Source: a virus. From it: a stretch of DNA of 64,000 nucleotides. Below the pieces are notes generated by a model. That model made no database searches, was not told the origin of the DNA, and worked only from the letters and a program-made list of their open reading frames with translations. This document shows positions 1,060-24,857 of the stretch, one piece after another (within the stretch, counting starts at the first letter, position 1; each line of letters begins with the position of its first letter). A program made the translations under genes and the position numbers. Where the stretch lies: positions 15,612-79,611 of IMG/VR virus record IMGVR_UViG_3300021171_000007; one strand, given 5' to 3'.

Positions 1060-2859
1060 TCAGTTGCTGTTGTTTTTGATTCCAACAAGCATCCTCTTTG
1101 GCGCCGCAAATTGGTTCATCCACGCAGATGGTCGCCCGACGAACGTGGAAATTTTGCGACCAGTACTGTCTTCGGATTTGATTTCCCGCAAGAAATCCTC
1201 GCCCATATCTGCTGGATGTAGACCGGCTTGTTCAGCATCGGAATAGATCGTATTCTCGATGTTGGCGAAGGCTGCATCATCTGCAATGACCTTAAGGTCA
1301 ATGTCCTTCCAGGCCTTGGAGTGCTCCTTGAGGCCATTGGCAAGACGACGACGATACGCAATCAAAGTCTCCCCATCAAGCGCACGCGGAGCCTTGCTGC
1401 CATGCATCAAATAGATGCGGTCGGCGCGAACCTGCGAATCAGCCATTAAAGCATAATCCGCATCCGTCATTTGACGAGGCAGTTTGGCTGCAACGTCAGC
1501 AACGCTCTTACGGAGCGTTTCAAGTTCGGCGGCATCTGCCTTGGCTTTGGCATCGGCCTTTTCTTTTTCCTCGGCATCCGCCTTGGCTTTGGCTTCCGCG
1601 TCCGCCTTGGCCTTGGCTTCTGCATCAGCTTTTTCGCGCTCGGCGGCGTCCATTTTGGCACGGGCGTCAGCCTTCTCCTTCTCTTCGGCGTCAGCTTTTG
1701 CCTTGTCAGCTTTCTCCTTTTCCTTCTCGTCCCAGGCGTCGCTGACGGTTTTCTTTACTGAATCCTTAATCGCATCGGCAAATGACGCAAAATAAGAATC
1801 AAATCGGGCCTTGTCAGCCTTTTCCTTTTCTTCTGCGTCAGCCTTTGCCTTCGCCTCATCTGCCTTGCGAGCGGCTTCCAAAGCCGCAGCTTTATCGTCG
1901 TCTGCCATAACAAGTTCCTTTTCTGCGGTTATCACGCCACTCGGCGGTAGTCCTTTATCCCAAACACCCACAAAGCAAATAGCTATGTGGTCTAGTAGTC
2001 TTGGCTTACCTTCAATAAGTAATTTGTTACCATTCCTCAGCTTAATTTTTTGGTCTTCACCCGTAAGAACCACGCAAGGAGAAGTGCTTAATTGATTTTC
2101 TGCCATAAGTTTGGCAGCATTTTCATCCCATACTTTTACAATTGCCCAAACTTCATCACCCTTAATATATGGAATAAATACAGAACCAACATTTCTATCA
2201 ACGTATTCTTTGGTATTTAATGTTGCCCTACCAGGATGCTCAAAGATAACAGGAAGACCATTACAACGCTCAAGAAATTCTTGATTCAAATAAATCGACT
2301 TGTCGCGCCACACATGCTCTTTAATACCACTTCGATATGATAATCCAGTACCAGTTATTCTAATATCAAACAAAGTAAGATTGGCATAACGCTGCGGTGA
2401 GGTTAACTCACCATCTTTCATAAGTTTAGCAATACCTAATTCATCAGCAAATAGTTTCTTTATAGTCGTTACTACCCCAGGATGTAATGGCTGGGGAGGC
2501 ATTTCCAGTGGTGCCCACTTAAAGCCTGTATGTTCTTCATCTAATCTTGGAGGTACAAATTCGTCATCTACTTCTTGAATATAAGTAGTATAATCAACTA
2601 TGTATGTGGGTCTGTCTCCGTTTCCTTCATTAGTGGATATTCTACGAGAGAGTTCAAATAATTCTCCAGAAGGGTAGAATCCAATTTCTTCAGAACATTC
2701 TCTAATGGCTGCTTGGACTGATGTTTCACCGGCTTCCCGTTTTCCACCAGGTAGATCGTAAAATCCAGAATAATCTCCATATTCTGAACGCTTAAGAAAT
2801 AATGCCCTCTTGTCAGATGTGACAAAGAGGATGCCGGAAGCATTGATAGTCTCCGTCAT
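1060..2859 (-). CDS. NUDIX domain fused to DUF2213-type head maturation protein with scaffold-like tail
   Basis: Nudix box PGGKREAGETSVQAAIRECSEEIG; central NGLPVIFEHP...DHIAIC; (KAKADAE)n coiled coil. Confidence 0.75.
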   Translation of the reverse strand: MTETINASGILFVTSDKRALFLKRSEYGDYSGFYDLPGGKREAGETSVQAAIRECSEEIGFYPSGELFELSRRISTNEGNGDRPTYIVDYTTYIQEVDDEFVPPRLDEEHTGFKWAPLEMPPQPLHPGVVTTIKKLFADELGIAKLMKDGELTSPQRYANLTLFDIRITGTGLSYRSGIKEHVWRDKSIYLNQEFLERCNGLPVIFEHPGRATLNTKEYVDRNVGSVFIPYIKGDEVWAIVKVWDENAAKLMAENQLSTSPCVVLTGEDQKIKLRNGNKLLIEGKPRLLDHIAICFVGVWDKGLPPSGVITAEKELVMADDDKAAALEAARKADEAKAKADAEEKEKADKARFDSYFASFADAIKDSVKKTVSDAWDEKEKEKADKAKADAEEKEKADARAKMDAAEREKADAEAKAKADAEAKAKADAEEKEKADAKAKADAAELETLRKSVADVAAKLPRQMTDADYALMADSQVRADRIYLMHGSKAPRALDGETLIAYRRRLANGLKEHSKAWKDIDLKVIADDAAFANIENTIYSDAEQAGLHPADMGEDFLREIKSEDSTGRKISTFVGRPSAWMNQFAAPKRMLVGIKNNSN

Positions 2860-18005: not shown

Positions 18006-18119
18006 AGGCTCTAGGCGGTTAGATCCACTGCCTAGGGCTATTTGACATTGTGAATACTGGACACTGTGACATGTAACTCTGTTCCGTGTAGATTAGCCAT
18101 CTCACAGAGGAGAATAATC

Positions 18120-19151
18120 ATGTCATTGCTAATGTCACTAATACAAAACGGCTCAAATCAAGAAGATCCCAGGACAAATCTTCTTGAGTACACTGCTGGT
18201 ACCATCGCTAAGCATATTGATGCGCCAGCGCACTACCTGGTTGGATTAGCTCTATGGGCGCTACATACCCATGTGTATTCCACCTATAGCAAGACTCCAA
18301 GATTAGCTATCTTGAGCCCAGTTCCTAACTGTGGCAAGAGTACAGTTTTGGAGATACTAGCTGCAATGGCTTGGAATCCTAAACGAGTAATAGACCCAAC
18401 TGAAGCCGCTCTATTTCGTTTGGCAAGCAATCATACAATGCTGCTAGATGAAGTAGATAACATGTCAATATCAAGAGGCATGAAGTCTGTCTTAAATGAA
18501 GGAGACAGATTGGGTGGTAGTGTTATAAGAACTGGAAAGGACGGTGAAGTTATATCCTATCCAGTTTTTGCTCCTCTTGCACTTGCTGGTATTGGTAGGT
18601 TGCCAGCAACTCTTATGACTCGGTCAATAGTTATAAGACTCCATCGCTCAGATAAAGCAATGGATAGATTCTCAGCAAGAGAGCAGCACTTTGCACCACA
18701 TTTCTATAATTGGGGTGATCAGGTAGTTCTTAATTCTGATCCACAAATGCCGCCTCAGTTAGTAGGTCGTGACGCAGATAAATGGAGATCGCTCGTAGCT
18801 ATTGGAGACTCGTTTGGTCGAGGCGAGATAGCGAGAGAGGTGGCGCTCAAGTTCGTAACTGAGAGCGTTAATCCAGATGTCAAGGAGCTAATACTGCGTG
18901 ATACACAGAGAGTGTTCAATAGAGCTAAAGTCACTAAGATCTCTGTGAAGAGAATGTACGAGAAGCTTATTGAGGACAAAGAAGGTGAACACGAAGTAGA
19001 TTATGACGGCCAAAAAATAACAAAAAGAAAAGTTGGAGACACATTACGTGATTTCCAAATATACAGTCGTATCGAAAGGCCAGAAAAAGGCGAGCCAGTT
19101 AGGTATTGGCTCAGAGACGATTTTGAAGAAATGTGGAAAAGGTATGCCTAG
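18120..19151 (+). CDS. DUF3631-type P-loop ATPase/helicase-like replication protein
   Basis: PRLAILSPVPNCGKST, TEAALFR, LLDEVD, LALAGIG and TRSIVIRL; GAGGAG SD. Confidence 0.75.
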   Translation: MSLLMSLIQNGSNQEDPRTNLLEYTAGTIAKHIDAPAHYLVGLALWALHTHVYSTYSKTPRLAILSPVPNCGKSTVLEILAAMAWNPKRVIDPTEAALFRLASNHTMLLDEVDNMSISRGMKSVLNEGDRLGGSVIRTGKDGEVISYPVFAPLALAGIGRLPATLMTRSIVIRLHRSDKAMDRFSAREQHFAPHFYNWGDQVVLNSDPQMPPQLVGRDADKWRSLVAIGDSFGRGEIAREVALKFVTESVNPDVKELILRDTQRVFNRAKVTKISVKRMYEKLIEDKEGEHEVDYDGQKITKRKVGDTLRDFQIYSRIERPEKGEPVRYWLRDDFEEMWKRYA

Positions 19152-19180: not shown

Positions 19181-19366
19181 TGAGTCCCAATAAAGATGGG
19201 TGCGCCTCATTTTATCGAGTTATTTCAGCTTATGACAATCAATCGCCAATCAGTGAATGAATAATGGCTGAATTATGTAGTGAATTCAATATTTGAAGTT
19301 TCATGGGTCAGTGATTATCATGGTATTTTCTCTGTATGTTCCCTTTTTACCCCCTATTTGTTCCCC

Positions 19367-19395
19367 TTGCTTTCCTTCCGCGAACGTGCTACGGT
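19367..19395 (+). promoter_or_regulatory. Sigma70-type promoter of the ribozyme-containing early operon
   Basis: TTGCTT-17 nt (ending TGC)-TACGGT. Confidence 0.7.
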
Positions 19396-19399
19396 TCTT

Positions 19400-19640
19400 C
19401 TCCCGCAGAGGAAACTGCGGCGCAGCCTGAGACTTGGCGAAGAGCGAAATAAACCCGGCAAAATGACTCGCCGAGCGGTTAAGTAAGTGGTTAGGCAGTC
19501 TCTCCTCAAAGGGCAAAAAGCACCAGGGAGAAAAACCTGCCATTTGCGTCGTTTCGGCGGACGGAAATATCCGCCTGAAATAACAACACAGAGCACAGCG
19601 TTCTGAGAAGGATGCTGTGCTCGCTGGTGTTATTTCTAGC
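19400..19640 (+). ncRNA. Structured 5' leader RNA
   Basis: Stems 19403-08/19415-20, 19434-40/19468-74, and a 14-bp hairpin 19591-622 with GAGA loop extended by 19577-85/19628-36. Confidence 0.55.
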
Positions 19641-19650
19641 AAGGAAAAGT

Positions 19651-20034
19651 ATGATGTCTAGTAAAAAACGCGCATTGATAAGGCATATGAAAGCAAATCC
19701 CGTAGATAGTGTGAGATCTGCACATAAAAATATGAATATCACTCCTTTGCGTTTAACCTACAGGATTGATCCAAATAAAGAATTGAAAGAACGAGATGTA
19801 AAGCCTATGACGGAATTAGCAATTGATCAAAATTACGACATTTTGAAGAGAAAAGAGACATTTCTTGTAAGAACTGGTAAGAGAGTTATAAAATATGTGA
19901 AGAATAATCCGCCTGGAAAGCGGTATTATCCTCGATCTGAGTCAAAAATAGCAAGAGGTGATACATTAAACGGAAAGACTTTGAGTTACACTACGCTTTC
20001 TGATTACAATAGTAAGCGTAAAAATGAGGAGTAA
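19651..20034 (+). CDS. Basic hypothetical protein
   Basis: AAGGA SD before ATG 19651. Confidence 0.6.
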   Translation: MMSSKKRALIRHMKANPVDSVRSAHKNMNITPLRLTYRIDPNKELKERDVKPMTELAIDQNYDILKRKETFLVRTGKRVIKYVKNNPPGKRYYPRSESKIARGDTLNGKTLSYTTLSDYNSKRKNEE

Positions 20035-20203
20035 GCGTTATGACAGAGCGTAAACTTGTTGACAGGAGTATTTTCAGAAAACAACCAAAAATGCCACCAC
20101 TACAGCGATTGTTTGTCAGCGTAGCAACTGGACATGCCAATCGCAGCAAAAGACAAAAAGTCTCAGTTGCACCTATGCAATTCACCAAACAGGAGAAGCA
20201 AAA

Positions 20204-20596
20204 ATGAAAGTGTTCAATAAAGAAATGCATGACAATCTATTAGCTCTGGGATATGAGCATACTCGATATGTCTCCAAAAAATATCGAACCAGATTCGATA
20301 TGTATGATCACCCAGATAACGACGACTGGTTTGAGATAGACGAGAAAGGACATATTGATCCAGCTGATCTTTGCGGCTTTACGGAAGGATCTACCAGAGG
20401 GCACCAAATATATGAGGATTGGAAAGCAGCAGGGAAACAAGGTTTTCTGAACTTCAAAAATAAACCATTACCGACAGAATTGGTAATACACAGAATAGGG
20501 TGTGATATTAAGGATAGATTAGTCAAAAAGAACATGCCATTCGAGTTAGAACTCACGGAAGAAAAATTTCAACTGAAAAGGCTTACTGAGCATTAA
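20204..20596 (+). CDS. Hypothetical protein
   Basis: AGGAG SD; stop codon abuts ribozyme 1; N-terminus resembles the ORF ending at 30688 (LHTFLLKKGYRY...RYDRYDH). Confidence 0.7.
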   Translation: MKVFNKEMHDNLLALGYEHTRYVSKKYRTRFDMYDHPDNDDWFEIDEKGHIDPADLCGFTEGSTRGHQIYEDWKAAGKQGFLNFKNKPLPTELVIHRIGCDIKDRLVKKNMPFELELTEEKFQLKRLTEH

Positions 20597-20659
20597 GACC
20601 GAAACTGGGGCGCCACAAAAGCTCTCCAGTCCTAGCGTAAGGCGCTAGCTGACGAGGTC
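20597..20659 (+). ncRNA. Hammerhead ribozyme type II, copy 1 (cleavage after C20631)
   Basis: GACC-GAAA-CTGG..CCAG-TC-CTAGCG taagg CGCTAG-CTGACGA-GGTC. Confidence 0.93.
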
Positions 20660-20678
20660 AGTAACAGGAGTTGTACTA

Positions 20679-21095
20679 ATGAAACTAGATCTTAATATTC
20701 ACATAAACTCTTGGTTGCATCGTAATGACGATGTAATCGACCCTATTCTCATTCAATTGAAGGGGAATAGCGAACGGATGATTGTAGATACTTCTGAGTA
20801 TATTTTTATCAGTTTCGAGTATCCTCTTTCACAAGGACTCGATCTGCCGTTTAATGGCAAGAAGCCTTGGAGATTGTGCGATCTTATTGATGCGATCTGC
20901 CAGGGATATGTGAAGATTTACGACGAGGAAGATGAGACCAGAACGCTTCCTGCTCAGTCCCCATTAGATTCTGTTCTGGTTAATCGTCCTAAGACTGACG
21001 GCAAGCATGGCATTTGGGGACACGATCTCAATGACCTTTATATTGAAGGCGTACATAAAGAAGAAGGAATTTGGCATCTCGATATTGGATCATAA
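20679..21095 (+). CDS. Hypothetical protein
   Basis: AGGAG SD after ribozyme; GKHGIWGHDLNDLYIEG. Confidence 0.75.
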   Translation: MKLDLNIHINSWLHRNDDVIDPILIQLKGNSERMIVDTSEYIFISFEYPLSQGLDLPFNGKKPWRLCDLIDAICQGYVKIYDEEDETRTLPAQSPLDSVLVNRPKTDGKHGIWGHDLNDLYIEGVHKEEGIWHLDIGS

Positions 21096-21107
21096 TGGGA
21101 GGGAGCA

Positions 21108-21326
21108 ATGGGATATAGAATGAGGCGTTGTGACAAATGTAAGGATTTGATAAACGGAAATGATGTTGCATTCAATATACATTTTAAATGGTGCGGACAT
21201 AATACTGGACTAAACTATATGAGTGAGAAAGATCTTAAAGTGCTGGAAGCTAAATTGGCGCAACCAAGGAAAGATTCACCAGAAGCGGCTTGGAATAAAA
21301 TGCACAATTGGTCAGGAAAACAGTAG
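21108..21326 (+). CDS. Small Zn-finger-like protein
   Basis: CDKC...HFKWC; TAG overlaps ribozyme 2. Confidence 0.65.
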   Translation: MGYRMRRCDKCKDLINGNDVAFNIHFKWCGHNTGLNYMSEKDLKVLEAKLAQPRKDSPEAAWNKMHNWSGKQ

Positions 21327-21386
21327 ACCGAAACTGGAGTGCCACAAGCTCTCCAGTCGCAGCGTTCCTCGCTGCCTGACGAGGTC
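21326..21386 (+). ncRNA. Hammerhead ribozyme type II, copy 2 (cleavage after C21358)
   Basis: GACC-GAAA-CTGGAG..CTCCAG-TC-GCAGCG ttcct CGCTGC-CTGACGA-GGTC. Confidence 0.95.
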
Positions 21387-21404
21387 AGTAATAGGAGAAT
21401 GAAA

Positions 21405-21629
21405 ATGGCACGAGTAATTGTTCAAATTAAAACTGTCACATATTTAAATGGAGCTACTACTGAAATCGAAGATGAGTTACTTCGTGAATTTACAGTAGTA
21501 ACAAAAGGTCGTGGTGCAGTGAACATGCATTCAATGGCATCAATTATACAAGGTACGATCGAATCTGCTGAGGAAAGATTTAGGGTTGAAAAGACCAAAA
21601 CATATTCAACAAATCGTAATATTGGTTAA
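21405..21629 (+). CDS. Hypothetical protein
   Basis: AGGAG at 21393-97; start 21405 (or 21399). Confidence 0.65.
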   Translation: MARVIVQIKTVTYLNGATTEIEDELLREFTVVTKGRGAVNMHSMASIIQGTIESAEERFRVEKTKTYSTNRNIG

Positions 21630-21632
21630 TTA

Positions 21633-21691
21633 GACCGAAACTGGCAGGTGCGATCTGCCAGTCGCAGCGTTTCTCGCTGCCTGACGAGGTC
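21633..21691 (+). ncRNA. Hammerhead ribozyme type II, copy 3 (cleavage after C21663)
   Basis: GACC-GAAA-CTGGCAG..CTGCCAG-TC-GCAGCG tttct CGCTGC-CTGACGA-GGTC. Confidence 0.95.
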
Positions 21692-21710
21692 AGTAACCAG
21701 GAGAACTAAA

Positions 21711-21992
21711 ATGAAACTTCCTCCAATAGAAGATGTTAAACTTACTGTCATAGGGCCGGATGATCCGCTTCCAGCGGGCTTCGAGCCCATCACCATTGTC
21801 GTCAAGGACGTATCATGTCCAAAATGCGGTGCTGGAGAGATGCACCCGGATGGCAAGCATGTCCTAATTCGTGGATTCAAAGTCTGCGATGCAAAAGGAC
21901 ATTGGTGGAGTCAATGTCTTGTCTGTGCCGGTGGGTACGACGCAGATTTGAACCCCGTTAAGGAGTTTGATCGCAACAAGGGATGGTTCTAA
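21711..21992 (+). CDS. Zn-ribbon protein
   Basis: CPKC...CLVC; AGGAG SD. Confidence 0.7.
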   Translation: MKLPPIEDVKLTVIGPDDPLPAGFEPITIVVKDVSCPKCGAGEMHPDGKHVLIRGFKVCDAKGHWWSQCLVCAGGYDADLNPVKEFDRNKGWF

Positions 21993-22231
21993 TGCCAACC
22001 ATAACAGTTGAACTCGAAGTAGCAATGGCTCAAGAGCTTGCCTCAGTAGCGCGTGGCAAAGCTAAGGGCATCGACTGGGTTCTGGAGAATAAACCTCCAG
22101 TTCCCAAGAAGGCGTTGGAGCTTGACGAGCGAGCCAAAATTCTCGTTCAAGCTGCCACACTAATCGAGACTGCTCTTCACCAAAGAGCACTCGGCAACGT
22201 CGTAAAGATGGGAGATAAAAATGTCCGATAA
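21983..22231 (+). CDS. Hypothetical protein
   Basis: Coupled ORF; true start may be ATG 21992. Confidence 0.6.
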   Translation: MVLMPTITVELEVAMAQELASVARGKAKGIDWVLENKPPVPKKALELDERAKILVQAATLIETALHQRALGNVVKMGDKNVR

Positions 22232-22520
22232 GGACCCATGGATCGTCTGCCCCGTGTGTGATGGGGAAGGCAAGACAGTCAATCCTAATATTGATGCGAA
22301 CGGATTGACTCGCGAAGACTTCGATGAAGACCCAGACTTCAGAGAAGATTATATGAGCGGCATGTATGATATTACGTGCGCCGCTTGTTCTGGGAAGCGC
22401 GTTGTGAAACAAGCACGCATCACGGAATTAGAGCAGAATGCTGAAGATCGTCGGCTTGCTGCTCGTGAAAACGGCGACTATGAATCATACAGTGTCGCAG
22501 GCGATTGGAGATACGGATGA
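22221..22520 (+). CDS. DnaJ-type Zn-finger protein
   Basis: CPVCDGEG...CAACSGKR. Confidence 0.7.
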   Translation: MSDKDPWIVCPVCDGEGKTVNPNIDANGLTREDFDEDPDFREDYMSGMYDITCAACSGKRVVKQARITELEQNAEDRRLAARENGDYESYSVAGDWRYG

Positions 22521-22759
22521 AACTGGATAAACAACGCGAAAACCGAGCCAAGTACCCTTTCATTTGTGCTTGGGGCGCTAGACTTGGTTCTTTTCAATAT
22601 TACATCGACGGTGAAGTTGCAAGAGCCATCGAAGATGGCGCTCCTGACCGTGCCATTTATAAGAGTGGCGACGGCAAGTGGCGCACCATCGATGACTGCC
22701 AAAACGAAATGGCCAAAGAAGAATGTATAGCTTGGGTGGCCAAAAACTTTAAGAAATAG
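22505..22759 (+). CDS. Hypothetical protein
   Basis: TAG overlaps ribozyme 4; true start probably ATG 22517. Confidence 0.65.
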   Translation: MEIRMKLDKQRENRAKYPFICAWGARLGSFQYYIDGEVARAIEDGAPDRAIYKSGDGKWRTIDDCQNEMAKEECIAWVAKNFKK

Positions 22760-22817
22760 ACCGAAACTGGTAGGTGCGATCTACCAGTCACAGCGTAAGG
22801 CGCTGTCTGACGAGGTC
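22759..22817 (+). ncRNA. Hammerhead ribozyme type II, copy 4 (cleavage after C22789)
   Basis: GACC-GAAA-CTGGTAG..CTACCAG-TC-ACAGCG taagg CGCTGT-CTGACGA-GGTC. Confidence 0.95.
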
Positions 22818-22835
22818 AGTAATAGGAGTTGTATA

Positions 22836-23330
22836 ATGAAACAGGTTTCTGATTACTACAAGAAGTTCCTTCATAACGACGGAATTTCCAAAGAAATGTA
22901 TAATGAAAACATCGAGCTTATTTACGATGTTGACGCAGAAATGTGGTATGCTTTTAATTACATATCACCAACGCATTACTACGAAGAATTTGAAGATCTC
23001 ATCGACGCGCTCGATTCAAATTCTGTTCTTTGGTGGCACGACTTGTCCGGCGACAATGATAAAGTTACGGACAGGAAGCAGATATTGGTAATTAAATTCC
23101 TCGATGACGAGGAAGACGAATGGACCATGTTCTACCATCACGGTATAATGGACGGCAAAGATGTAACAACATCTTGGGCTGCTCCATCTTCAGGAGAATT
23201 TCCTACTCCTGAATGCATTGTACGTCAGAAAGTATCTGTGGTGCAATGTGCTGTTGATGCCGCACAATTTATTTTTGATCAACCACATATAAATAAGCCA
23301 CGTAATCCATCACTTCGTTACGTCAAATAG
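22836..23330 (+). CDS. Acidic hypothetical protein
   Basis: Single gene bracketed by ribozymes 4 and 5; D/E- and aromatic-rich. Confidence 0.75.
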   Translation: MKQVSDYYKKFLHNDGISKEMYNENIELIYDVDAEMWYAFNYISPTHYYEEFEDLIDALDSNSVLWWHDLSGDNDKVTDRKQILVIKFLDDEEDEWTMFYHHGIMDGKDVTTSWAAPSSGEFPTPECIVRQKVSVVQCAVDAAQFIFDQPHINKPRNPSLRYVK

Positions 23331-23396
23331 ATCGAAACTATGGGGCGCCACAGGAGCGTTCCATAGTCGCAGCGTAACTCGCTGCCTGACGAGATC
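23330..23396 (+). ncRNA. Hammerhead ribozyme type II, copy 5 (cleavage after C23368)
   Basis: GATC-GAAA-CTATGG..CCATAG-TC-GCAGCG taact CGCTGC-CTGACGA-GATC; compensatory change in stem II. Confidence 0.95.
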
Positions 23397-23414
23397 AGAA
23401 AAGGAGTAGGTAGC

Positions 23415-23624
23415 ATGACGAAAGTAGATCCAAAATCTGCCTTTGAAGGGGACACCATTACTCCCGTTGAGAAGCCTAAGTCAAGGGCGCAGAAGGTTGC
23501 TGAGTACAGAGTAGCTCATCGAGCAGAGTACGAGCGAACTTGCCATGATGCACAATGCACTTGCACGCCAACTCGCGCGCAGATGTTGATTATGGATAAC
23601 TACCAAAGCCCACCAATCGACTAA
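23415..23624 (+). CDS. Hypothetical protein
   Basis: AGGAG SD after ribozyme 5. Confidence 0.65.
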   Translation: MTKVDPKSAFEGDTITPVEKPKSRAQKVAEYRVAHRAEYERTCHDAQCTCTPTRAQMLIMDNYQSPPID

Positions 23625-23861
23625 TTATAAACCTTACCATTGAACTTTGGAGCGCAGCAATGCGCTCCACTTTTAGGCAATTTTGCCACTACCAGGATAA
23701 GTAAAATGTCAAGAATAAAATCAGCTTTACGAGGTGTTGTCATAGTACCGGCTTGGGTCGTTATGCTGGCAACAGCCAGTTTTATCGTCGGAACTGGTAT
23801 CTGGACTACACTGCTGATGAGCCGCTGTTCGATCTAACCAACCTAAACCAGGAGAATAAAA

Positions 23862-24179
23862 ATGACACCTCAAGAGAGCAGGAAGAATTGGCTCGATAAG
23901 CAGCCAGTGCGCGAGAATCTTACTACTGAGCACGGATGGCCGATGCGAAATGATCATATTCTGCATCTGTTCGGTTTGCCATCAAATCATCCTATTCCGC
24001 CGGATTATGAAGATATCAAACTAATCGGTAATGTTTGGGTTCGGATTTATCCACGCGGACAGGCGCACATTGGTAGACGTGTTGTGGCAGAATGTCCAAA
24101 ATGTGAAAGATTGGTTTGTGCTGGCCATTTAATGCAACATATGAAGGTACATAATGATCGAGGAGCAAGCAAAATTTGA
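23862..24179 (+). CDS. C2H2 Zn-finger protein
   Basis: CPKC...HLMQHMKVH. Confidence 0.65.
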   Translation: MTPQESRKNWLDKQPVRENLTTEHGWPMRNDHILHLFGLPSNHPIPPDYEDIKLIGNVWVRIYPRGQAHIGRRVVAECPKCERLVCAGHLMQHMKVHNDRGASKI

Positions 24180-24337
24180 GAGATGGAAGTCCAGAGTAGA
24201 CGTTTACCTGGAGCAGATGGTAAAGAAACTAAGTGGAGATTTTAAATATGATTATCTCCACGACTTCCAAAATAAGGTTCCACCCAGCATAACAGCTACT
24301 CGCGTTGTAAAACGCCAGTACAGAAATGGAGTAGAAA

Positions 24338-24586
24338 ATGGTAGCAACAGCATACGGAGTCAAGGCAAATGGCAAAAAACTCCTCGATGAATATCGAGGA
24401 GACCGCATATATGGAGATTGTTTCATCATTCTTAAGGATGGAAAGGAAACATATGAGGTTGTTCTTTCCACTATCGGTGATATGTGCAATTGCAAAGCTG
24501 GCGAACATGGTCATCAATGCAAACATGTTAAGATGGCACTAGAATATCATCACAAAATTAACGAAGCGATTGAGGCAGTCAAATAG
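24338..24586 (+). CDS. SWIM Zn-finger protein
   Basis: CNC...CKH; TAG overlaps ribozyme 6. Confidence 0.7.
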   Translation: MVATAYGVKANGKKLLDEYRGDRIYGDCFIILKDGKETYEVVLSTIGDMCNCKAGEHGHQCKHVKMALEYHHKINEAIEAVK

Positions 24587-24649
24587 ACCGAAACTTGGGG
24601 CGCCACAAGGCGTTCCAAGTCGTGCTGTAAGGCAGCACCTGACGAGGTC
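24586..24649 (+). ncRNA. Hammerhead ribozyme type II, copy 6 (cleavage after C24621)
   Basis: GACC-GAAA-CTTGG..CCAAG-TC-GTGCTG taagg CAGCAC-CTGACGA-GGTC. Confidence 0.95.
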
Positions 24650-24673
24650 AGAAATGCCAAGGAGGTAGCACGT

Positions 24674-24808
24674 ATGGGTGACCCAGAAGAGCATAAAGAC
24701 GAAGAGTTGAGCCTTGAGAAAGAGACTCAAAAAGAGCCCAAAGAAGAGGCAAAAGAGCCAGTAAAAGAAGGTGATCCTCAACCAGAGGAAGATCCCAAAG
24801 TAGCGTAA
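24674..24808 (+). CDS. Very small E/K/P-rich protein
   Basis: AAGGAGG SD; MGDPEEHKDEELSLEK...; below the ORF-track cutoff. Confidence 0.55.
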   Translation: MGDPEEHKDEELSLEKETQKEPKEEAKEPVKEGDPQPEEDPKVA

Positions 24809-24824
24809 ATATAACGTCAACTTT

Positions 24825-24857
24825 CCGCTCCCATTTGGGAGGGTGGGAGCGGTTTTT
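24825..24857 (+). terminator. Intrinsic terminator closing the ribozyme operon
   Basis: CCGCTCCCAT..GTGGGAGCGG-TTTTT. Confidence 0.7.

Follow-up and report, generated by a model that had tools for sequence, protein, structure and literature searches.

Six predicted hammerhead ribozymes in one phage operon

The stretch of DNA analyzed here (the window, 64,000 nucleotides) corresponds to bases 15612-79611 of a 79,611-bp IMG/VR virus record, IMGVR_UViG_3300021171_000007, which is rated complete. Packed into 4.05 kb of an operon of small genes, it carries six elements (HH1 to HH6) that are probably active type II hammerhead ribozymes of a widespread phage subfamily, cutting the operon RNA into seven insulated pieces. 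We give this reading, which is built on sequence comparison and predicted folding, a probability of about 0.75.

The elements were retrieved with a rule-based descriptor (stem II of at least 3 bp, GAAA, stem III hairpin, U-H, stem I hairpin, CUGANGA, stem II) run on both strands of the whole 79,611-bp genome, which returned exactly six matches, all of them on the + strand. These are the same six positions, with the full core and identical cut sites, that a first-pass annotation of the sequence had proposed, and the sizes it gave for the internal units (727, 305, 1126, 579 and 1253 nt) follow from the cut positions. When the genome was shuffled 100 times with its dinucleotide composition preserved, the mean number of matches was 0.11 and the maximum 1, and a partial pattern found 5 matches where 0.02 were expected; with six elements against 0.11, chance is therefore no explanation for them. 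They are the only hammerheads in the genome, and each is found in an intergenic gap, on the coding strand. As annotated before, each begins at or within 4 nt of the stop codon of the upstream gene, which abuts or overlaps stem II (by 0 to 3 nt), and is followed by a tail AGUAA or AGAAA and then by the AGGAG Shine-Dalgarno sequence of the next gene. The elements and their stop codons are as follows.

20597-20659, + strand: HH1, with tail AGUAA to 20664; predicted cut after 20631
20594-20596, + strand: stop codon TAA, abutting stem II of HH1
21326-21386, + strand: HH2, with tail AGUAA to 21391; predicted cut after 21358
21324-21326, + strand: stop codon TAG, its G common to stem II of HH2
21633-21691, + strand: HH3, with tail AGUAA to 21696; predicted cut after 21663
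21627-21629, + strand: stop codon TAA, 3 nt upstream of HH3
22759-22817, + strand: HH4, with tail AGUAA to 22822; predicted cut after 22789
22757-22759, + strand: stop codon TAG, its G common to stem II of HH4
23330-23396, + strand: HH5, with tail AGAAA to 23401; predicted cut after 23368
23328-23330, + strand: stop codon TAG, its G common to stem II of HH5
24586-24649, + strand: HH6, with tail AGAAA to 24654; predicted cut after 24621
24584-24586, + strand: stop codon TAG, its G common to stem II of HH6

Catalytic core and covariation

The catalytic core is canonical in all six copies (C3 U4 G5 A6 N7 G8 A9, G12 A13 A14, A15.1-U16.1, C17 and G10.1-C11.1), and the cleavage triplet is always GUC. 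Each element runs from the 5' strand of stem II through GAAA, the stem III hairpin, UC, the stem I hairpin and CUGACGA to the 3' strand of stem II, which is the type II topology, with loops closing stems I and III and stem II left open. The stem versions described in the first-pass annotation were found again: five copies have GACC/GGUC as stem II and HH5 has GAUC/GAUC, stem I occurs in four versions, and the stem IIIs differ, those of HH3 and HH4 by one compensated change from C-G to U-A. Pairing among the six copies extends to 98% of the cells of the alignment, with double changes in 8 of the 17 pairs, values that none of 500 shuffles reached.

A covariance model built from the six copies (R1, with which HH1 scores 92.5 bits) was applied to six related contigs, located through the product of the gene that follows HH1 (71-75% identity), and detected 3 to 6 further copies in each. 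The 18 distinct sequences from these contigs have 98.4% of the cells paired and 12 of 17 pairs doubly changed. In a wider set of 103 distinct members from ~95 viral contigs the figures rise to 99.5% and 15 of 17, and the core is invariant. Orthologous copies in relatives differ by compensated substitutions; for instance, stem II of HH6 is GACC/GGUC, while that of its orthologue in the related contig L125 (position 8931) is GAUC/GAUC. With this core, three covarying helices and type II topology, the elements therefore have the class-defining features of type II hammerheads, for which we followed the class definition and acceptance rules of Perreault 2011.

The Rfam search suggested along with the first-pass annotation gave a different outcome. 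The type II model RF02276 (Hammerhead_II, with a gathering threshold of 37 bits) had no match at E<=10 in the whole genome, and no family matched in a gathering scan of the window. E-value scans produced just weak, mis-registered matches to Hammerhead_3 (14-20 bits), which borrow GAAAC from the AUGAAAC of the next gene. In our reading, RF02276 probably misses the elements because the model is blind to a subfamily whose stem III is long and which lacks a pseudoknot tail; since the class-defining features are all present, we do not take the miss as evidence against the motif. AUGAAAC begins three of the six genes that follow a ribozyme (window positions 20679, 21711 and 22836); it is most likely just a common Met-Lys start, giving the type III model a spurious second GAAAC.

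Anatomy outside the core

The subfamily is marked by a stem II of 4 bp (GAYC/GRUC), a stem I of 6 bp with an unpaired U1.7 after it, an A immediately 5' of stem II and an A-rich tail AGWAA. Both the 6-bp stem I with its U1.7 and the A directly 5' of stem II (5' of G11.4) occur in 103/103 relatives, which at the sequence level supports the U1.7-A contact put forward earlier, and we infer such a tertiary contact in these elements. The upstream stop codon supplies the invariant A as its second or third base, and in four of the six copies the G of UAG opens stem II. Tails read AGUA, AGAA or AAUA, and their positions 4 and 5 are A in 85-88% of the relatives. These three features (stem I with U1.7, the A 5' of stem II and the A residues of the tail) were not forced by the search patterns. 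Stem II and the tail "AG" are nearly invariant, whereas stems I and III are free to vary. The median length of the stem III hairpin is 25 nt in the phage family of the window and 16 nt in other members.

An A(L2.4):U1.7 Hoogsteen contact has been described in natural hammerheads, and among ribozymes with a 4-bp stem II and an unpaired U1.7 the fastest have "A-class" loops (AGUA, AAUA, AUUA, AAAA) (PMC11875169). The invariant U1.7, the invariant A and the A-rich tail fit both this contact and the fast A-class loops. Most type II hammerheads are stabilized by a pseudoknot between loop I and the 3' tail (PMC3088659). In our six copies, no consistent complement of at least 4 bp was found between loop I (UAAGG, UUCCU, UUUCU or UAACU) and the tail 3' of stem II (AGUAA or AGAAA). 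A pseudoknot of loop I with the Shine-Dalgarno sequence (UUCCU or UUUCU with AGGAG) was considered for HH2 and HH3, the only copies that could form it, and rejected, the other four loops being unable to pair.

The arrangement around the ribozymes extends to the class as a whole. In 81% of 149 distinct phage type II hammerheads, an open reading frame (ORF) with 50 or more codons ends between -8 and +3 nt relative to stem II, compared with 4.7% of random positions, and in 90% a Shine-Dalgarno sequence and start codon follow within 60 nt downstream. A ribozyme set between a stop codon and a ribosome-binding site is therefore typical of the class in general and no peculiarity of this operon.

A competing self-masking hairpin

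The core strand that carries CUGA-N7-GAG-N10.2-UCAG is also able to form a local hairpin of 5 bp with a GAG triloop, which would hide C3-N7 and the 3' strand of stem II. Its predicted positions in the six copies are the following.

20649-20661, + strand: predicted self-masking hairpin option of HH1
21376-21388, + strand: predicted self-masking hairpin option of HH2
21681-21693, + strand: predicted self-masking hairpin option of HH3
22807-22819, + strand: predicted self-masking hairpin option of HH4
23386-23398, + strand: predicted self-masking hairpin option of HH5, of 4 bp
24639-24651, + strand: predicted self-masking hairpin option of HH6

N7, which is unpaired in the active fold, covaries with position 10.2 in the 103 relatives (CG in 41, UA in 37, UG in 15 and other combinations in 10), and the association holds across 48 sequence clusters (Fisher p = 8e-5). 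HH6 and its L125 orthologue differ by a coordinated triple change at 11.2, 7 and 10.2. HH5 is the only copy with a mismatch (C7/A10.2), which shortens its hairpin to 4 bp. By nearest-neighbour energies, the hammerhead fold and the masked fold differ by just 0.1-0.7 kcal/mol in 6/6 copies, and the masking hairpin appears in the predicted fold of 4/6 3' products. That the hairpin forms is likely but not proven, because only one of its five pairs is informative, the other four being fixed by the core and the search pattern. If it does, it would explain the near-invariance of stem II and of the tail "AG."

No description of a self-masking hairpin was found in the literature on type II hammerheads that we searched. 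When bacterial genomes were scanned with the subfamily pattern, only 2 of 120 loci folded as hammerheads and the rest were almost all chance matches, so that the scan provided neither a hint of the host nor a replication of the N7-10.2 test. Separately, complementarity between 3' tail and core takes another form in L027 (GACGA-GGC-UCGUC) and in L064 (a 7-bp CUGACGA/UCGUCAG hairpin); by their sequence, these tail-core hairpins are other versions of the self-masking fold.

The hairpin raises the question of whether cutting is gated. A ribosome terminating at the upstream stop codon, which is built into stem II, would unwind the ribozyme, the masking hairpin could take over the core strand, and upstream translation or the kinetics of folding would time or throttle cleavage. 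Such gating would refine the best explanation, with which it is compatible, and is suggested by the N7-10.2 covariation, the triple change between HH6 orthologues, the two isoenergetic folds in all six copies, the constancy of stem II and the tail "AG" next to variable stems I and III, and the frequency with which phage type II hammerheads abut an ORF end. However, the single informative pair is the one mismatched in HH5, and stop codons may adjoin the ribozymes just because an A is required at that position or because the genome is economical. The sequence data also fit equally well an off state before cleavage and a lock that acts after it. We consider gated cutting a tentative possibility only.

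The operon and its transcription signals

The ribozymes divide a block of ~17 ORFs into units of 3, 2, 1, 4, 1, 5 and 1 genes, so that the "gene by gene" punctuation of the first-pass annotation was overstated. Within units, genes overlap or sit at most 24 nt apart, and every gap of more than 25 nt contains a ribozyme or a stable hairpin. The operon genes are ORFans located before the replication genes. PHROG and Pfam searches found no function for them, weak zinc-finger hints aside, and most of them have homologues in relatives, at 31-94% amino acid identity. From its position, "early" timing of the operon is plausible. The block and the candidate signals around it are listed below.

19651-24808, + strand: block of ~17 small ORFs (43-164 amino acids) with Shine-Dalgarno sites, from the ORF list and translations
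19293-19321, + strand: candidate promoter TTGAAG-17-TATCAT, 9/12 in a consensus scan
19367-19395, + strand: candidate promoter of the first-pass annotation, TTGCTT-17-(TGc)TACGGT, 6/12 to the sigma-70 consensus
19577-19636, + strand: imperfect leader hairpin of ~25 bp, ending 14 nt before the first start codon
23648-23669, + strand: GC-rich 9-bp hairpin followed by ACUUUUAGG, in the g12-g13 gap inside the HH5-HH6 unit
24825-24857, + strand: strong intrinsic terminator, a 12-bp stem followed by UUUUU

The promoter placed earlier at 19367 could not be confirmed, as it matches only 6 of 12 consensus positions and was overlooked by the consensus scan. It can be read as an extended -10 type (TTG...TGnTAnnnT), of which L125 has the version TTGCTT...TGcTAGCCT, and both promoter candidates are within blocks conserved with L125. 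The terminator proposed at the end of the operon (24857) proved to be the best terminator-like site of the region, with a fold of -20.7 kcal/mol.

Two further hairpins accompany the ribozymes. The leader fold (19536-19650) has an energy of -49.9 kcal/mol (z = -6.45), and none of 200 shuffles was as stable. No Rfam match was found for the leader hairpin, which may be a 5' stabilizer or an RNase III site for the first unit; L125 has a longer, different insert at this site. The second hairpin, at 23648-23669 (-22.2 kcal/mol, z = -3.86), is followed in the RNA by ACUUUU and falls below the U-tract rule of the terminator scan. It occupies the only operon gap of more than 25 nt without a ribozyme, a type of slot that elsewhere is filled by ribozymes. 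It may act as a partial terminator or a 3' stabilizer, and may end some transcripts before HH6, within the 1253-nt unit.

Gene exchange among relatives

In five related phage records this gene block contains 6, 3, 3, 5 and 3 ribozyme copies. Conservation extends to the slots ahead of g4, g12 and g17, and gene content changes at ribozyme-bounded slots. Between HH4 and HH5 the window has g11 (22836-23330), while L185 has unrelated sequence and in L125 the slot is missing; no relative of the g11 protein was found in IMG/VR. Between HH2 and HH3 lies g6 (21405-21629), which has no homologue in the relatives. The single-gene units with ribozymes on both sides (g6 and g11) are the variable ones. In addition, L185 contains an extra ribozyme-bounded cassette of 1.6 kb before g17, and L125 has a ribozyme between g8 and g9, two genes that overlap in the window. 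Gene order is shuffled in L126 and L128.

Arrays are also found outside this phage family. The unrelated viral contigs L024, L071, L027, L079 and L209, from IMG/VR samples, contain type II hammerhead arrays of 3-5 copies. L024 (IMGVR_UViG_3300048837_000975) has five hammerheads in 4.4 kb and L071 four in 1 kb.

Put together, these features could describe a two-state device, in which the stop codon within stem II supplies the contact A, the core can be hidden by the covarying hairpin, cutting is timed by upstream termination or co-transcriptional folding, and the slots are units of gene gain or swap. If this were true, the hammerhead would be a combined insulator, switch and cassette boundary, although we consider so complete a scheme doubtful.

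The flux of genes at ribozyme-bounded slots (HH4-HH5, HH2-HH3, the L185 cassette and g8/g9 of L125) might instead point to a role at the DNA level, the elements being conserved linkers for cassette exchange between related phages and RNA cleavage being secondary. We find this unlikely. Selection acts on RNA pairing, with compensated stem changes and invariant catalytic bases that a DNA linker would not need, the identical stretches between copies are short, and new genes may simply need their own insulator.

Proposed fate of the transcript

Returning to self-cleavage as the main role of the elements, we propose that once the + strand operon is transcribed, each ribozyme would fold and cut itself after C17 co-transcriptionally, so that a single polycistronic RNA would yield seven pieces, each with 1-5 translationally coupled genes. 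The upstream piece would keep its stop codon and end in the long stem III hairpin and C17 with a 2',3'-cyclic phosphate, a combination that should block 3' exonucleases and polyadenylation; the unusual length of stem III would suit such a role as a 3' protector. The downstream piece would begin with a 5'-OH flush with the first base of the stem I hairpin. Its freed core strand would be able to fold a second small hairpin (CUGAN-GAG-N'UCAG), and it would offer a strong AGGAG Shine-Dalgarno sequence 5-10 nt further on. With a stem II of 4 bp the products could separate, and the masking hairpin would prevent the cut from being reversed. Overall, mRNA would be processed independently of the host, and neighbouring units would be insulated from one another in stability and translation.

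The product anatomy given in the first-pass annotation, a 5'-OH hairpin and a 3' hairpin, follows from the core and the stem layout. Cleavage in vivo, protection of the ends and a benefit to the phage are predictions from the sequence. The consequences for stability and insulation, which are drawn from general knowledge of bacterial mRNA decay, would depend on the host.

Several points weigh against this reading. RF02276 and all other Rfam hammerhead models are below threshold. The loop I pseudoknot is absent, so that fast cleavage at physiological Mg2+ would depend on the putative U1.7-A contact. The hammerhead and masked folds are nearly equal in energy, so part of the RNA may sit inactive. 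Moreover, what becomes of 5'-OH and cyclic-phosphate ends would depend on the host. According to work cited in PMC6765202, the 5'-OH products of glmS are degraded by RNase J1 in Bacillus, and this review (2019) calls the purpose of such ribozymes undefined.

A different fate of the internal units would be circularization or re-joining as RNA, via reverse ligation or RtcB. Ends with a 5'-OH and a 2',3'-cyclic phosphate suit both RtcB and hammerhead ligation, and here the ends of each unit are halves of hammerheads that could pair, stem II being GACC/GGUC in 5/6 copies. We give this idea little credence. Spliced or circular products of comparable arrays were sought and not found (PMC3088659), the ends, separated by 300-1250 nt, would be held together by just 4 bp, the strand involved is also claimed by the self-masking hairpin, and an evident use for circular mRNA is absent here.

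Finally, the elements might be structured intergenic repeats without catalytic activity, such as sites for a protein or an RNase, that only resemble hammerheads. This is very unlikely, because the core is invariant: although no Rfam hammerhead model reaches its threshold and cleavage is here predicted from the sequence, the catalytic positions do not change in the 103 relatives while the helices covary, the full descriptor is ~50-fold above chance, and canonical-core phage hammerheads have cleaved whenever assayed (PMC3088659, PMC8782182).

The source phage

The genome belongs to a tailed phage with terminase, portal and tail fibres, and it looks virulent, judging by its own set of replication genes (DNA polymerase, helicase, primase and ligase). 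A megablast comparison with GenBank found no close phage relatives of the genome. The best identities of TerL to cultured phages are 28-42%, and therefore a host assignment was not possible. A search for tRNA genes found none. The only sequencing runs listed for the stretch are two soil-metagenome DNA runs, with no RNA run among them.

Two other proteins encoded in the window deserve a brief description. One, of 361 amino acids (window 18066-19151), has a C-terminal DUF3631 domain (E = 2.6e-19), and its gene is placed between the small terminase subunit and the ribozyme operon; in the relatives L126 and L128 it is inverted. The other, of 598 amino acids (window 1060-2859, - strand), adjoins the portal gene, shows a full-length match to PHROG 6216 (E = 1e-145) and bears a NUDIX hydrolase region at its N terminus.

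Comparison with known systems

The closest precedent is that of Perreault et al. 2011 (PLoS Comput Biol, PMC3088659), who described multiple hammerheads that often flank single genes or short blocks in prophages, and proposed that long phage transcripts are processed in this way into operon- or gene-length mRNAs; cleavage of their triple hammerhead arrays was shown in vitro and in E. coli. In Desulfovibrio vulgaris, too, three type II hammerheads located close to phage genes self-cleave (PMC8782182). Novelty was hence overstated in the first-pass annotation, as clustered phage hammerheads with the same proposed role were already described in PMC3088659. The prophage arrays and ours have in common several copies, often of type II, on the coding strand and in intergenic positions, which flank genes or short blocks of variable identity, as well as the proposed transcript-cutting role. 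With six hammerheads in 4.05 kb and units of 1-5 genes, the operon qualifies as clustered in the sense of Fig. 3 of Perreault 2011, as do the five related records and the unrelated contigs L024, L071, L027 and L079.

The differences are in number, since there are six copies here while triple arrays were assayed there, in the virulent-looking genome and in structure. In place of the pseudoknot between loop I and the 3' tail, our elements have the invariant U1.7 and A residues, and they combine a long stem III with a predicted, covarying self-masking hairpin; the Rfam type II model misses them. The locus is a clean new phage example of an arrangement known since 2011, with a few notable sequence-level features. 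Its value is limited by this precedent and by the phage being known from soil metagenomes only. On the other hand, the locus is a compact and well-conserved case, with relatives that have 3-6 copies. Four of its traits make it a subject for experiment: the stop codon that forms part of the ribozyme, the U1.7 and A residues that never vary, the covariation of N7 with 10.2 and the length of the 3' hairpins.

Minimal hammerheads with an A(L2.4):U1.7 contact (O'Rourke et al. 2015, as cited in PMC11875169; structures sTRSV 2QUS and Schistosoma 3ZP8) resemble our elements in the 4-bp stem II, the 6-bp stem I followed by an unpaired U, the A at the end of loop II and the start of loop II, which reads AGUA, AGAA or AAUA, among the fastest loop sequences in PMC11875169. 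In contrast to them, loop II is open here (type II), so that the "loop" would consist of the 5' leader, with its stop codon, and the 3' tail, and the contact is suggested by invariance.

In the early mRNA of phage T7, host RNase III cuts double-stranded RNA and leaves a 5'-phosphate and a 3'-OH. The T7 system and ours would have in common a polycistronic transcript cut at intergenic hairpins, with upstream products that end in a protective hairpin. However, here the RNA is predicted to cut itself, leaving a 5'-OH and a 2',3'-cyclic phosphate without any host factor, and the relationship is one of analogy, not membership.

RiboJ is a synthetic insulator made of the sTRSV hammerhead and a downstream hairpin. 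As proposed for our elements, a hammerhead just upstream of the Shine-Dalgarno sequence removes the upstream context, and an extra hairpin precedes the ribosome-binding site. The elements described here are instead natural, of type II and serial in one operon, and their extra hairpin would come from the core strand of the ribozyme itself. At ~65 nt, they would be natural, compact insulator parts.

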